Shown here: in pieces, positions 58,493 through 64,000 of the stretch | Layout: the number at the start of each line of letters is the position of its first letter | Numbering within the stretch: the stretch's first letter is position 1 | IMG/VR virus record: IMGVR_UViG_2529293038_000017 | Coordinates: 1-64,000 of that record | Strand: one strand, 5' to 3' | Source: a virus | Lineage: Duplodnaviria; Heunggongvirae; Uroviricota; Caudoviricetes | DNA: 64,000 nt | The notes under the pieces: model-generated | Database searches by the model: none | Seen by the model: only the letters and a program-made list of their open reading frames with translations | Told to the model about the DNA's origin: nothing | Made by a program: the position numbers and the translations under genes

Positions 58493-60507
58493 AAGAGCTG
58501 TGCTATGGATCTGTTTGCAGTGGAATTGAAGCCGCGAGTATTGCCTGGGAACCGTTGGGTATGCGTCCGGCGTGGTTTGCTGAAATCGAGCCTTTTCCAT
58601 CTGCCGTTCTTGCGCACCGCTGGCCCCATGTCGCCAACCTTGGCGACATGACAAAACTTGCCAAAAAAGTCCTGGCTGGGGAAATCGAATCCCCTGATGT
58701 GCTCGTCGGGGGTACGCCTTGTCAGGCATTCAGTATCGCGGGCTTACGTGGTGGGCTTGATGATGAACGCGGCGCGCTAACTTTGAAGTATGTGGAGCTT
58801 GCAAATGCAATTGACGACAAACGGTCTGAGTCCTTCCTCAAACCGACAGTTATCGTCTGGGAAAATGTCCCAGGAGTCCTGTCATCGGCAGATAACGCCT
58901 TCGGATGTTTCCTTGCCGGATTGGCTGGAGAAGATGCGCCATTTGAACCAGGTGATCGACCTGAATCAGGAAAAAGTAACGCGTTCTGGCGGTGGGATGG
59001 CAAAACCGGTTGCCATGCTCCAAAGTGGCCGCAGTGTGGTTGTATTTATGGACCGCAGCGAAAGGTGGCCTGGAGAATCCTTGATGCCCAATACTTCGGA
59101 GTGGCACAACGACGCCGACGCGTGTTTGTTGTCGCAAGTGCTCGAACAGACCTCGATCCCGCAACGGTACTTTTTGAGTTCGAAGGCGTGCGCCGGAATA
59201 TTGCGCCGAGCAGAGGCGAGGGGAAGGAAACTACCAGATATACTTCAAACATCGCTATCAGATCTTGCGATGATACAAACATAGTTGCCATGGCACATGG
59301 GCAAGGAGGGGCTGAGATAAAAACCGATAATTCGGCACCAACTTTGACATGTAACCATGAAGCACCAATTGTATTGCTCGTCGACGGTAGAATGCGCCGT
59401 CTTATCCCTGTCGAATGTGAAAGGCTGCAAGGTTTTCCTGATGGACATACATTGATCCCTACGGAAAAGCGTAAAAAAGTTTCTTCAGATGAACTGGCAT
59501 ACCTTCGCAAAAACTATCCTGATTTGAGCGAAGAAGAGGCCGCGATGCTTGCAGCTGACGGACCGCGTTACAAAGCGATCGGCAATAGTATGGCGATACC
59601 AGTAATGCGCTGGATTGGCGATCGGATTGCCAAGGCTGCATGTCGGCAGAAGGAAGGGAGTGAAACAAAAGAGCGAAAAGTTAAACCAGCGGCAGAATTC
59701 GAACGGTCCATATTCAAATGGGCTGGTGGAAAATTTGGTGTTCTGGAACAAATCTTTCGCTATTTGCCAGAAGGGAAGCGCCTGATTGAGCCTTTCGTTG
59801 GTGGCGGAGCTGTCTTCATGAATGCCGGATACCAGGAAAATCTGCTAAATGATGTGAATGCTGACCTGATTAACTTTTACAAGACTCTGCAACGCGAGGC
59901 GCATTCACTTATCACTCTGGCACATCGTTTCTTCCAGGACTACAACACGCAGGAAGGATACCTGGCAGTACGGAATGCGTTTAACAAACAAGTCTATGAT
60001 GATTTACATCGCGCAGCGGCGTTTTTGTTCCTGAACCGACATTGTTTTAACGGATTGACGCGTTACAACCAAGCCGGTGAGTTCAATGTCGGTTATGGGA
60101 AGTATAAAACTCCGTATTTCCCATTGCAGGAGATGGAAGCCTTCCTTGGTGCGGAAGGGCGTTCTGAGTTTGTATGTGGTGATTTTGCTGCGGTGATTGA
60201 AGCTGCCGGAGAAGGAGATGTCATCTTTTGCGATCCGCCGTATGAACCGCTCCCAAATACAGAGGGATTCACGAACTATTCCGGTCATGACTTTAAGTTT
60301 GAAGAGCAAAAACGCCTGGCGTCTCTGTTGACGGATGCTCATCGCCGAGGTGCAAAGGTTCTCATTACTAACAGTGGCGCGCCAAACATCAGAGAACTTT
60401 ATCAGGACAGTGGCTTCAGAGTGGAACCTCTTTTTGCCAGACGTTCTGTGTCTTGTAAGGGGGACACTCGAGGTGTTGCTCATGACGTTATAGCAATATT
60501 GCTCTAA
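58489..60507 (+). CDS. dmt: Bifunctional DNA methyltransferase Dmt: N-terminal C5-cytosine MTase fused to C-terminal Dam-like N6-adenine MTase (672 aa)
   Basis: GTG start overlapping the hrdC stop. m5C motifs [12 protein letters not shown] and WENVPGV; Dam-like motifs [19 protein letters not shown] and DPPY. Confidence 0.9.
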
Positions 60508-60514
60508 TAAATTT
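60498..60514. promoter_or_regulatory. C1 operator (ATTGCTCTAATAAATTT), Op72-like
   Basis: Perfect 17/17 consensus, overlapping the dmt stop codon. Confidence 0.7.
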
Positions 60515-60691
60515 ATTAGTGTAATATCGCCTCAATGAATCGTGATTTATAGAGCGATTTAGCTGTTAGCCGCGACAGGCGCGGCGGCAAGTATGGCGGG
60601 GTAGTGACTCCTTCCCCCTCATGACGCCGAGTTGCCAGGTTGACCATACGCCTAAGTGGCAACACCGAAGTGCGTTACGAGCTTCCAGTTT

Positions 60692-60717
60692 GCCCATCTT
60701 CGGGTGGGCGTTTTTTT
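60692..60717 (+). terminator. Rho-independent terminator
   Basis: GCCCATC-TTCG-GGTGGGC followed by G and a T7 run. Confidence 0.75.
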
Positions 60718-61182
60718 CAGGGTTTTCGTCATGGTTAGCGACTTTGCGGCGGTTTAGAAACTGACCATTAAAGTAAATGCAAACGATGATCTGATGATGG
60801 TAGCGGCCTAAGAAGCCAGACGCCACGGGGTATGAGTCGTCCCCCGTCAAAAAATCGACCGCAGAGTGTCCCCGTCTGTGTATTAGGGAACGGGGAGGCA
60901 CAACAGGTAAGGGCGCTGGTGTGATTAACCAGATGAACGAGAAGGGGCCATCTGTTGGTCAGCGTCCTTTCCTGTTGCGTCTTCTTTTCAGCGTAACAGC
61001 GGTGCTTAACAGCACTTTGGGTACAGTTCCACGAATTTACGGGTATATCCCGTCATGCTGAAAGCGCTAATCACGCTGGAAGCCAGGGTTATGCATCCCC
61101 TGTTACCGAATTGCAGCCAGGGCGCGGTGCGCCGAAAAGCATACGGAGGTGGAAGCCCTCGCCGGAGACGTACCCGGCAAGT

Positions 61183-61258
61183 GATGGTGTAGCTCAGCGG
61201 TTAGAGCGGTTGACTGTTAATCAACGGGTCGATGGTTCAAATCCATCCACCATCGCCA
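61183..61258 (+). tRNA. tRNA-Asn (anticodon GTT)
   Basis: Manual cloverleaf: acceptor GATGGTG/CACCATC, D-arm GCTC-AGCGGTTA-GAGC, anticodon arm GTTGA-CTGTTAA-TCAAC, T-arm GATGG-TTCAAAT-CCATC, encoded CCA. Confidence 0.9.
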
Positions 61259-61260
61259 AT

Positions 61261-61336
61261 GCCGGTTTAGCTCAGTTGGTAGAGCGCCTGCCTTGTAAGC
61301 AGGATGTCAGCGGTTCGAGTCCGTTAATCGGCACCA
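61261..61336 (+). tRNA. tRNA-Thr (anticodon TGT)
   Basis: Manual cloverleaf: acceptor GCCGGTT/AATCGGC, anticodon arm CCTGC-CTTGTAA-GCAGG, T-arm AGCGG-TTCGAGT-CCGTT, encoded CCA. Confidence 0.9.
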
Positions 61337-61340
61337 GCAC

Positions 61341-61447
61341 AACAGGTAAGGGTATTTTGCGACGTCGGAGATCGCCGAGCTTGGCAGAGGGTTCGAATCC
61401 CTACGAAGTACCCTTACCGTTGTGATGAATGCGCAGGCTGATGCGCG
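61341..61447 (+). repeat. Hairpin module a: tRNA-like pseudo-element with canonical T-arm
   Basis: 10-bp stem GGTAAGGGTA/TACCCTTACC enclosing GGTTCGAATCC, followed by conserved tail GTGATGAATGCGCAGGCTGATGCGC. No full cloverleaf could be folded. Confidence 0.5.
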
Positions 61448-61549
61448 AAAGACATTGCAGCTATTGCGGAAAAGAGCTGTTCGGCGGGGCAATTAAACGC
61501 CCGTGAGAGTCTGAAATAACCGCAAGCCGGAGATCAGCACCGGTCATCA

Positions 61550-61632
61550 CAACACAACAGGTAAGGGCATTCTCCCTTATGGGGCTTGGCTTAAATGCAT
61601 CGAGTGCTCTTACCGTTGTGATGAAGTGCAGC
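61550..61632 (+). repeat. Hairpin module b
   Basis: Stem CAACAGGTAAGGGCATTC / GAGTGCTCTTACCGTTG, then tail TGATGAAGTGCAGC. Confidence 0.5.
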
Positions 61633-61759
61633 TCTTTGAAGCAACCAGAAGATAAGCATCTGGCTTCACAACATAAACCGCAGGAACGACCAATAAACGG
61701 TAGTCCGTATGGAGAACACCCCGTTGAGGAAGAGGCCTGGCCGGAACCGTAACCGGCAC

Positions 61760-61877
61760 TACAACGTTGAGAACACTGGCGTAACGGGGTCATATCCCAA
61801 TCTACGAATAAATGTTGCGTTGCAGCGTGACAACCAGTGTTCTCAACATTGTGGTGAATGCACAGGCTGATGTGCCG
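61760..61877 (+). repeat. Hairpin module c
   Basis: 18-bp stem CAACGTTGAGAACACTGG / CCAGTGTTCTCAACATTG. Tail hairpin GCACA-GGCTGA-TGTGC shows compensatory changes relative to module a. Confidence 0.5.
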
Positions 61878-62035
61878 CAACTACAGTAGTGCGCGCTTTG
61901 CGGGGCTTGCTACAACCCTGTGTCGGAGTTCAGCACCGACCATCACAGTTTGATTCTCTGGCATGAGCATAACGCTGAAATAAGTCCAGCCTGGTGCGGC
62001 CCGATCACCCGCCGTTAGCTCCACGAAACGGAGCA

Positions 62036-62138
62036 CGTAACAGGTAAGAGCATTCTCCTGTAACGGGTTCATATCCCAATCTACAGGTCCACCAAGAATG
62101 CTCTTTCCGTTGCGGTGAATGCGGCTAAGCGCACGCGG
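62036..62138 (+). repeat. Hairpin module d
   Basis: Stem AACAGGTAAGAGCATTC / GAATGCTCTTTCCGTTG enclosing GGGTTCATATCCCAATCTACAGG, then tail GGTGAATGCGGC. Confidence 0.5.
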
Positions 62139-62264
62139 GGAAATGGTTATATCAGTCCATTCATTTCTCCTTGTTTCCCCGTCCACGGTGGATAACCAGC
62201 CAAAGGACACCGGGAGGCACCCGGCACCGCAGCTTTTTTATTCGTTAAATAATGGAGTGAGAGG

Positions 62265-64000
<1,736 letters not shown>

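Follow-up and report, generated by a model that had tools for sequence, protein, structure and literature searches.

tRNA-shaped RNA units with variable inserts alternate with long hairpins around the tRNA genes of a P1-like phage

What is encoded around the two tRNA genes near the end of the window studied here, the whole 64,000-nt stretch at positions 1 to 64,000 of IMG/VR virus record IMGVR_UViG_2529293038_000017? This end of the window is a P1-like phage/plasmid in which the dmt methyltransferase gene terminates at 60507, and from there to an IS21 element the DNA is 97–99% identical to phages RCS47, P1 and their relatives. The annotation of P1 puts two minus-strand open reading frames (ORFs), plp and upl, over the region, as does that of RCS47. 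A sequence-only reading of the window had described a tandem array of covarying hairpin modules. The results below leave little doubt that the region holds a set of structured plus-strand RNAs and is not protein-coding. The array extends from ~60900 to ~62240, where the closing unit finishes in a U tract, and so continues past 62140, the end first given for it. Two kinds of module alternate, all co-oriented with the tRNAs: H units are long hairpins, and T units are tRNA-shaped and carry a variable insert. Their order is H0, T0 (decayed), tRNA-Asn, tRNA-Thr, Ha, Ta', Hb, Tb' (decayed), Hc, Tc', Hd, Td' and the U tract (Table 1; T units are written a' to d' below). The two module types, the hypervariable inserts and the very wide distribution are not in the earlier reading.

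The repeated tail (GTGRTGAATGCRCAGGCTGATGYGC) and spacer motif (AGCACCGRYCATCACA) on which that reading was built are present, as is the compensatory difference in the tail hairpin (GCGC/GCGC versus GCAC/GTGC). The limits it drew between units have to be moved: tail (GTGATGAATGCGCAGGCTGATGCGC) and motif (AGCACCGGTCATCACA) are the 5' and 3' ends of one further structured unit, the T unit. Its scaffold consists of a 7-bp closing stem (P1), a 4-bp hairpin (P2), the insert, and a 5-bp hairpin (P3) that abuts P1. In unit a', the P1 strand GTTGTGATG (61419-27) pairs with CATCACAAC (61545-53) and is followed by AAU (61428-30); P2 is GCGC-AGGCTGAT-GCGC at 61431-46 (GCGC-AGGCUGAU-GCGC when written as RNA), the insert occupies 79 nt (61447-61525), and P3 (GCCGG-AGATCAGCA-CCGGT, 61526-44) runs directly into the 3' strand of P1. 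Unit c' has the same parts, with P1 at 61848-56 / 61941-49, P2 (GCAC-AGGCTGAT-GTGC) at 61860-75, an insert of 46 nt (61876-61921) and P3 (GTCGG-AGTTCAGCA-CCGAC) at 61922-40. Unit d' shares the outer plan with these two but has other hairpins: its closing stem is UGCGGUG / CACCGCA, its P3 is CCGGG-AGGCA-CCCGG, and a U tract follows at 62234-40. A covariance model built from T scaffolds (R1), which long inserts cause to split units, matches only the array within the window, on the plus strand only, with nothing else of note on either strand. Decayed units are recognizable by what they retain. T0 keeps a P3-like hairpin (GCCGG-AGACGTAC-CCGGC, 61161-61178), and b' keeps the P1 strands and a P3-like hairpin (CCAGA-AGATAAGCA-TCTGG, 61645-61663) without P2. 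The spacer after b', to which a stretch in Citrobacter phage phiNP is homologous, looks like the 3' half of another decayed T unit. The small hairpin that ends the spacer after c' precedes many H units in other genomes.

The H hairpins proved to be real. All five fold with z-scores between -4.5 and -7.2, and none of the 200 shuffles made for each was as stable. Every one of them is weaker on the minus strand (Hb, for instance, has -33.6 kcal/mol on the plus and -22.8 kcal/mol on the minus strand), and the region as a whole folds at -545 versus -517 kcal/mol, minimum-free-energy values that are informative for the strand comparison only. Such an asymmetry is the signature of G·U pairs, and it is therefore the plus strand that folds. 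The sequence of the lower H stem (CAAC-A-GGUAAG ... CUUUCC-GUUG) is conserved among 49 distinct H-T pairs, together with its irregularities, a bulged A, a U·U mismatch (35 of 49) and a U·G wobble (40 of 49). Stem positions 11–18 covary, with pairings such as AGCUGC/GCAGCU, GAUUAU/GUAAUC and GAAAGU/GCUUUC, and the interiors are variable (149 distinct sequences, mostly 28–100 nt). A few interiors contain T-arm-like hairpins, at 0.9 per kb against a background of 0.05 per kb. Ha, which has its bulged A at 61344, encloses a small hairpin and a T-arm-like hairpin (AGGGTTCGAATCCCT), and the T-arm noted earlier in module a (GGTTCGAATCC), with GGTTCATATCC in module d and GGGGTCATATCC in module c, is indeed there. 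Typically an H unit lies after the 3' end of a tRNA or T unit and leads straight into the next T unit.

The earlier suggestion that selection acts on structure is borne out by plus-strand folding and by covariation across relatives. Because model R1 splits units with long inserts, sequences were extracted with anchors, each helix being located without use of its own pairing to avoid circularity. For P3, 74 distinct units were found through a 5' 25-mer only, and 26 of their stems depart from the consensus: nine carry double compensatory changes (GUCGG/CCGAC four times, GCAGG/CCUGC twice, and GCCAG/CUGGC, GCUGG/CCAGC and ACCGG/CCGGU), nine have G·U or U·G wobbles, and eight are mismatched, roughly half at the terminal pair. 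The closing pair of P2, in 62 units found through a 3' 25-mer only, is CG in 54, UA in four, AU in three and UG in one, with no mismatch. P1 was examined in 88 distinct units from 104 species-representative loci, the nine bases after P3 being taken blindly as its 3' strand. Positions 3–9 are paired in at least 87% of these units, and the variable positions 3–5 show several Watson-Crick types (position 4: GC 49, AU 15, UA 12, CG 4). Over the outer five positions, 347 of 440 cells are paired, compared with 219 ± 9.6 in 1000 shuffles (maximum 247). At positions 3–9 wobbles outnumber A·C pairs by about 8:1, which again identifies the plus strand as the one that folds. In an alignment of 80 scaffolds, where the 100% pairing of P2 and P3 is partly by construction, 13 pairs show double changes, a number that none of 500 shuffles reached.

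The loops of P2 (AG-GCUGAU) and P3 (AG-AUCAGC-A) are complementary over six bases, and a 6-bp loop-loop kiss between them is supported, though less firmly than the helices. Both loops are conserved to such a degree that few variants exist, and looking for single changes in the core of the P2 loop yielded 6, 3 and 2 contigs. All three contigs with a U to C change in the P2 loop (AGGCCGAU) have ..CGGC.. in place of ..CAGC.. in the P3 loop, and they differ among themselves in the P1 and P3 stems. A single contig with a C to U change (AGGUUGAU) has ..CAAC.. in its P3 loop.

How far, then, does the T unit resemble a tRNA? The 7 bp of P1 and the 5 bp of P3 follow one another without an intervening base and add up to 12 bp, as do the acceptor and T arms of a tRNA, and it is the covarying P1 positions 3–9 that abut P3. 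P2 is D-arm-like, a 4-bp stem with an 8-nt loop that begins three bases after P1, and the insert occupies the place of the anticodon and variable arms. The three bases 3' of P1 are enriched for A, C and C (47%, 56% and 50%). The likeness is to tRNA and to tRNA-like domains such as the acceptor/T-arm domain of tmRNA or bacterial Y RNA (YrlA), with 7 + 5 bp stems, a 4-bp/8-nt 5' hairpin and a contact between the loops. Like tRNAs, T units occur in tRNA operons and have an ACC-rich 3' tail, but a 6-bp kiss replaces the tertiary pairs between the D and T loops. The scaffold has no anticodon arm, and unrelated insert sequence stands in its place; in tmRNA too, foreign sequence replaces the anticodon arm. 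ARAGORN and the Rfam tRNA model (RF00005), tools of the kind the earlier reading had proposed, call only the genuine tRNAs at 61183-61258 and 61261-61336, and no T unit. One T-unit insert, in a Geobacteraceae metagenome bin (L236), holds a tRNA-like D arm (GCTCAACTGGTAGAGC) and T arm (CTGGTTCAACTCCAG), and tRNA-like pieces can therefore nest inside T units.

The scaffold is far more widespread than the P1 group, and the view that the modules form a family of structured RNAs is supported. Pieces of the array are present in 224 phage records. Copies of a' that are 96–98% identical occur in Stx2/lambdoid and in Klebsiella phages. In the former they lie in the leader that separates the cI-like repressor region from the first early-left gene; in a Klebsiella siphovirus it stands behind a promoter-like -35/-10 pair (read from the sequence), with an H hairpin before it and two tRNAs after it. 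Exact-pattern scans of IMG/VR found at least 120 contigs for either scaffold end, and across the matched contigs listed the scaffold halves are near-invariant while the inserts are entirely different. The 101 distinct inserts fall into 71 unrelated families of 12–264 nt (187 distinct inserts when genome loci are added), and even the same flanks can enclose different inserts (L075 and L156). Within a family, the insert is ~95% conserved among its carriers. No insert matched outside T units in ~3 Mb of phage DNA, limited data that make this a weak test of a spacer-like origin. A scaffold 23-mer has exact matches at 104 loci of a collection that represents each species by one genome. Many of these loci are in Enterobacterales and many in Betaproteobacteria (Janthinobacterium, Pandoraea, Achromobacter, Comamonas, Massilia, Thauera); others are in further Gammaproteobacteria, in two Alphaproteobacteria, and in a few bins from metagenomes that belong to other phyla. 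The scaffold is near-identical in phages and prophages of Alpha-, Beta- and Gammaproteobacteria. Its 5' part is found in 1332 of 5426 complete E. coli genomes, on chromosomes and on plasmids; RefSeq has no annotation at any E. coli match among the matches listed, and none of the genome records examined annotates the scaffold as RNA. H-T pairs also occur in virulent phages, namely Klebsiella phage Magnus (~157 kb) and Escherichia phage 'nithesis' (72.6 kb), as well as in HK620 and the BASEL-collection phages Bas79 and Bas80, so that tractable experimental systems exist.

The genomic settings include tRNA operons and operon leaders. A tRNA lies within 600 nt of 28 of 130 T units, in all 28 cases on the same strand, and two genomes, one of them from Massilia, have the unit between two tRNAs. 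Real tRNAs occupy T-equivalent slots in relatives of P1 (Tyr in Ro157c2YLVW, Ser-UGA in D6 and P7). The arrays of these relatives differ by whole modules; P1 itself, when compared across the tRNA region as had been proposed, lacks exactly one 196-bp repeat (Ta' + Hb) between 17-bp direct repeats (CTTACCGTTGTGATGAA, at 61413-61429 and 61609-61625), from which it follows that module number changes through recombination between scaffold repeats. The commonest same-strand neighbors are cI-like repressors and Q-like proteins upstream, and recombination and lysis genes downstream. Clustering of neighbors at 171 viral and 104 genome loci found no specific linked protein partner, only generic phage genes (cI-like repressors, Q-like proteins, RecT-like recombinases, lysis genes). 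H-T pairs often lie between two terminators, one before and one after, and units that have no H hairpin show an 11-fold enrichment of -10-like hexamers 2–5 nt upstream of P1. This makes some T units look like small-RNA genes in their own right.

Is any of this a known RNA? Rfam 15 was scanned at E ≤ 10 for the region and for two single units, and at gathering thresholds for 38 loci. No family covers H or T; there are only the tRNAs, a sub-threshold STnc100 match and a partial RydB hairpin. A full-text literature search, in which the scaffold sequence itself was included, found no description of the scaffold. STnc100 (RF02076) matches unit d' with 37.8 bits (gathering score 47, E = 5e-6), 62111-62231 aligning to model positions 31–147, and d' has the corresponding architecture, a closing stem around the first and last hairpins followed by its U tract. 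The same model matches neither a' nor c', even at E ≤ 10, nor any of the 38 other loci. STnc100 and PasD share the plan of d' (a closing stem whose 5' side reads ...GGUGAAU, then one hairpin, a middle that varies, and a last hairpin CCGG..CCGG that abuts ...CACC) and its habitat, the lambdoid late region beside tRNAs, TerB, Q and lysis genes, whereas the main type of T unit (a', c' and more than 200 others) has its own invariant kissing P2/P3 loops. Both RNAs are reported as expressed prophage small RNAs, PasD being Hfq-associated (bioRxiv 10.64898/2026.05.13.724894; PMC12370729). PasD is structurally related to STnc100 and maps near Q and lysis genes, while PasA and PasC map near TerB (bioRxiv 10.64898/2026.05.13.724894); the function of STnc100 is unknown (PMC12370729).

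Other families bear a more partial likeness. RydB of E. coli K-12 (RF00118) has a hairpin (GCCGGAGAUAAGCGCCGG) nearly equal to P3, with the same loop as b' (61645-61663), but the match is confined to that hairpin (13.7 bits against a threshold of 50) and RydB has no P2; RydB, which lies at L211 2714-2781 in our data, might be a remnant of the T family. In the window, the T 3' strand and linker at 61544-61559 on the plus strand (CACAACACAACA / UCAUCACAACACAACA) contain the GcvB R1 target consensus CACAACA twice. The junction from the H 3' arm into the T 5' end is GU-rich, and so is the seed of GcvB. The prophage anti-small RNAs AgvB and AsxR (EcOnc01-03), of which AgvB uses a CACAACA motif (Tree et al. 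2014, PMC4104026), likewise combine a conserved with a short variable part and occupy moron sites of lambdoid prophages, and their motif is in CACAACACAACA. They differ from T units in length (51–60 nt), in having a conserved terminator-proximal 3' part, and in having no tRNA-like fold; the Rfam AgvB model gives 16 bits on the 3' end of a T unit. The model of YrlA/bacterial Y RNA (RF02553) has a single match, with 25.6 bits against a threshold of 69, over the two real tRNAs. The C4 antisense RNA of P1 and P7 owes its release from a longer transcript to RNase P and to a helix that resembles an acceptor stem. It is a precedent within P1 itself for the mechanism proposed below, although it has no sequence or model similarity to the array (RF01695 has no match in 60000-63000 at E ≤ 10). 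Two further candidates were rejected. The topology misfits that of ribozymes, be they hammerhead (CUGAUGA/GAAA) or of the HDV-like kind linked to tRNAs in phages, and Rfam gives no match to them, these being the only grounds; and the ends GTTGTGG / CCACAAC misfit the core GTTRRRY / RYYYAAC of integron attC sites, no recombinase being enriched among the neighbors.

What would such units do in a P1-like phage? The P1 annotation places C1-controlled Pban promoters at the end of dmt and, rightward from there, the ban operon with a 'dicF-like region', trnA (Asn), trnT (Thr), tciABC, trnI and ban. On the most likely account, to which we give an even chance, the array belongs to a polycistronic tRNA/non-coding RNA transcript that tRNA enzymes process into stable, tRNA-mimicking small RNAs. 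The interval 60900-62240 would be the non-coding part of a rightward transcript that includes tRNA-Asn and tRNA-Thr, within the C1-controlled ban operon. RNase P may cut at the 5' side of P1, as the tRNA-like geometry would allow, the support being the 7 + 5 bp and the ACC-rich tail only. RNase III or RNase E could cut in the H hairpins and spacers, H units acting as double-stranded spacers, and trimming of the 3' end to an ACC-like tail would yield discrete, stable RNAs of ~70–200 nt. The invariant scaffold would serve processing and stability, and probably the binding of a conserved tRNA-recognizing host factor; the payload would be the variable insert, which might, for example, act by base-pairing or as a sponge, as in the related, Hfq-bound STnc100/PasD. 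In keeping with this account, a promoter scan predicts no sigma-70-like promoter within 60400-62500; this simple scan does not detect the Pban site at 60482-60527 either.

Several observations weigh against this account. A strong terminator (60691-60717) sits between Pban and the array. The P3 loop (AGAUCAGCA) has 9 nt and does not conform to the 7-nt T-loop consensus TTCRANY, J1/2 has 3 nt instead of 2, and the units in the window have no ACC tail (a' ends ...CACA-ACAC and c' ends ...CACA-GUUU). Some P2-loop variants are uncompensated (C4 to A in four contigs, G6 to U in two). The inserts are not unusually structured, and no targets of theirs were identified. Finally, the conservation of the scaffold across proteobacterial classes seems to exceed what a mere processing handle needs. 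A more far-reaching proposal, which we put forward tentatively, is that T units form an ancient and so far undescribed class of phage RNAs. They would share a universal chassis that mimics tRNA and is the same to the base from Alpha- to Gammaproteobacteria, with more than 70 unrelated payloads and H as companion. The conserved host machine engaged by this chassis could be RNase P, some other reader of the elbow, a defense that targets tRNAs, or RNA polymerase and its Nus factors. If so, the chassis would be a general phage strategy to make, stabilize or deliver small RNAs.

The design is unusual in that inserts are freely exchangeable within a tRNA-like scaffold that stays constant. For twenty years the annotation of P1, a classic model phage, has shown two hypothetical proteins in this stretch; the data point to structured RNAs instead. 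The T block is present in a quarter of complete E. coli genomes and in hundreds of phages, including P1, HK620 and members of the BASEL collection, and is not in Rfam. Should the tRNA machinery process the units, this would explain many small RNAs from phage tRNA operons and operon leaders, and would provide a natural counterpart of the engineered 'tRNA scaffold' used for RNA expression.

Of the other explanations, a tRNA-mimic decoy or inhibitor is unlikely, if slightly less so than the rest. Here the scaffold would titrate or block a host factor that recognizes the acceptor or elbow, such as a tRNA-targeting defense toxin or a tRNA-processing enzyme, and the insert would be largely irrelevant. 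An invariant scaffold whose insert can be as short as 6–12 nt, tRNA dimensions with an ACC-like tail, and occurrence in both temperate and virulent phages all suit this explanation. Against it, neighbor clustering shows no consistently linked defense or counter-defense gene, and the conservation of each insert family among its carriers suggests that the inserts matter.

The units might also act in cis, as an antitermination or anti-Rho element comparable to nut, put or rrn sequences, with a boxA-like NusB/NusE site in H and a structure in T; this we consider quite improbable. Polymerase made resistant to Rho and terminators could transcribe the long untranslated tRNA/non-coding RNA leaders and the genes behind them, and extreme conservation would suit binding to a universal machine. 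The consensus of the H 3' arm (UGCUCUUUCC) shares UGCUCUUU with the real boxA of rrnH (TGCTCTTTAACAA). In the window, the Hb 3' arm (GAGTGCTCTTACCGTTG) contains the boxA-like GCTCTTA and has GCUCUUAC as in lambda nutR, the Hd 3' arm (AGAATGCTCTTTCCGTTG) carries TGCTCTTT, and UGCUCUUA or UGCUCUUU is found in the arms at 61602-61618 and 62095-62112. In the H 3' arms, UGCUCUUU and GCUCUUA immediately precede a GU-rich strand and a hairpin, and GCTCTT lies at most 16 nt before P1 in 37 of 110 viral and 15 of 91 genome units, compared with less than 1% of control windows. The settings are also suitable: units lie in the leaders of long operons, including that of Pban, in lambdoid PL leaders with no N-like protein at the first downstream position, and after Q-like genes and a terminator, ahead of lysis genes. 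Hb, Hd and many relatives have the core of a GCUCUUUA-type boxA; this core, however, is base-paired in H and missing from many units, including most non-enteric ones. With no boxB, and no boxB or put similarity in the Rfam scans, the likeness is a resemblance only. Moreover, four to five tandem copies would be redundant, and some T units look stand-alone, with a -10-like hexamer upstream and in some cases a terminator after them.

Could the modules simply be degenerate tRNA duplicates, as the sequence-only reading had suggested? That T units are tRNA-shaped and that a few H interiors hold T-arm-like hairpins agrees with it, but a 9-nt loop, a 6-bp kiss and the missing anticodon arm do not, and the T scaffold is a distinct, extremely conserved design rather than decayed copies of the adjacent tRNAs. 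It is very unlikely that the array consists of functionless tRNA remnants. The enrichment of T-arm-like hairpins in Ha and its counterparts, the real tRNAs in equivalent slots of relatives and the visibly degenerate T0, b' and b'' speak for decay; an exact 23-mer at 104 loci across proteobacterial classes, and compensatory changes that preserve all helices and the kiss, are unlike pseudogenes.

An element that works at the DNA level, either a recombination or boundary sequence or a signal in folded single-stranded DNA, is just as hard to sustain. Exchangeable inserts between identical flanks (L075, L156) and the loss of a 196-bp repeat in P1 would fit it, and in this limited sense the earlier idea of recombination sites survives: the repeats mediate module loss, while nothing supports site-specific recombination. 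G·U-type pairs are frequent and A·C pairs rare in P1 positions 3–9 and in P3, which fixes the folded strand, and that strand is the strand of the neighboring tRNA in 28 of 28 cases. Promoters lie just upstream and terminators just downstream of some units, and there is neither an integron-type core site nor a linked recombinase.

That the region encodes Plp and Upl proteins on the minus strand, as annotated in P1, can be dismissed almost entirely, even though an open frame of 125–156 codons is kept in seven P1-like genomes and PHROG families exist for the upl-type ORF. Across relatives, variable sites by codon position number 16/15/25 for the plp-like and 15/23/24 for the upl-like frame, with no third-position excess, and synonymous to non-synonymous changes are 18:40 and 19:47. 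These counts are as expected of unconstrained sequence and show no coding selection. Neither ORF matches a Pfam family at the curated cut-off (one weak match has E = 0.05, with 13.8 bits against 27), and the only family matches are PHROGs made from the same kind of ORF (upl-type). The ORF ends shift as modules are gained or lost, the P1 ORF overlaps tRNA-Thr, and the annotators of RefSeq and of P7 call no gene here. Both frames are judged spurious, as the earlier reading had thought probable, and this corrects plp/upl-like gene calls that have spread into phage protein families.

Table 1. Positions of the array modules and of features next to them or overlapping them in the window
Feature	Position	Strand	Remarks
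Pban promoters and C1 operator	60482..60527	+	Placed by offset from P1 annotation (L001 1483-1528); array lies downstream, in ban operon
'dicF-like region' of P1 annotation	60622..60717	+	Ends in strong intrinsic terminator 60691-60717
H0 hairpin	60901..60977	+	CAACAGGTAAGGGCGCTG / CAGCGTCCTTTCCTGTTG; fold z = -4.5; repeat family D4
T0, degenerate unit between H0 and tRNA-Asn	60978..61182	+	Read from sequence; missed by model R1
tRNA-Asn (GTT)	61183..61258	+	ARAGORN; Rfam tRNA model 74.5 bits
tRNA-Thr (TGT)	61261..61336	+	ARAGORN; Rfam tRNA model 72.9 bits
Ha hairpin	61340..61422	+	Fold z = -5.6; inverted repeat I4
T unit a'	61419..61553	+	R1 model 38.5 bits, split by 79-nt insert
Hb hairpin	61555..61618	+	Fold z = -6.2
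Degenerate T unit b'	61615..61672	+	Read from sequence; repeat families D1, D2; fold not significant
Spacer (b'')	61673..61761	+	Read from sequence; P3-like GCCGG-AACCGTAA-CCGGC 61740-61757, then ACUAC
Hc hairpin	61762..61851	+	CAACGTTGAGAACACTGG / CCAGTGTTCTCAACATTG; fold z = -5.9; inverted repeat I1, 91% complementary
T unit c'	61848..61949	+	R1 model 41.2 bits, E = 4e-9, full length
Spacer	61950..62037	+	Ends in small hairpin GCTCC-ACGAAAC-GGAGC (62018-62034); homologous in Klebsiella phages
Hd hairpin	62038..62112	+	Fold z = -7.2; inverted repeat I3
T unit d' (STnc100-like)	62109..62240	+	R1 model 18.3 bits, E = 0.01; fold z = -3.3
ORF equivalent to P1 'plp'	61461..61880	-	Judged spurious
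ORF equivalent to P1 'upl'	61881..62210	-	Judged spurious

Some smaller observations concern the surroundings of the array and its relatives. The Rfam DicF model has no match in the 'dicF-like region' (60622-60717) at E ≤ 10. Directly upstream of H0, the segment 60720-60897 (plus strand) is conserved in an unrelated lambdoid contig (L052), where it too is flanked, by an H-like hairpin on one side and an H-T pair on the other; this segment may represent another type of module. After the array comes a plus-strand ORF for a membrane protein of 62 amino acids (62265-62453; phrog_1130, 'moron' category), and then an IS21-family istB/istA pair on the minus strand (62504-63936). At the position of the latter, relatives have a serine protease or tciABC, tRNA-Met/Ile and ban, so the IS21 element is probably an insertion. 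Among the relatives, ARAGORN finds the tRNA-Ser(UGA) of P7 (L215, ~1949-2035), which the record does not annotate, and puts three tRNAs of D6 (L212, 1347-2052) on the strand of tciA, opposite to their annotation. In mEp460 and Stx2a_WGPS2, C4 antisense RNA and IsrK score above threshold in the antirepressor region (L003/L004, 415-670, minus strand), with the T unit ~2.5 kb away. L154 has matches to Sib RNA at a distance of ~350 nt from its T unit, and L035 has one such match as well.

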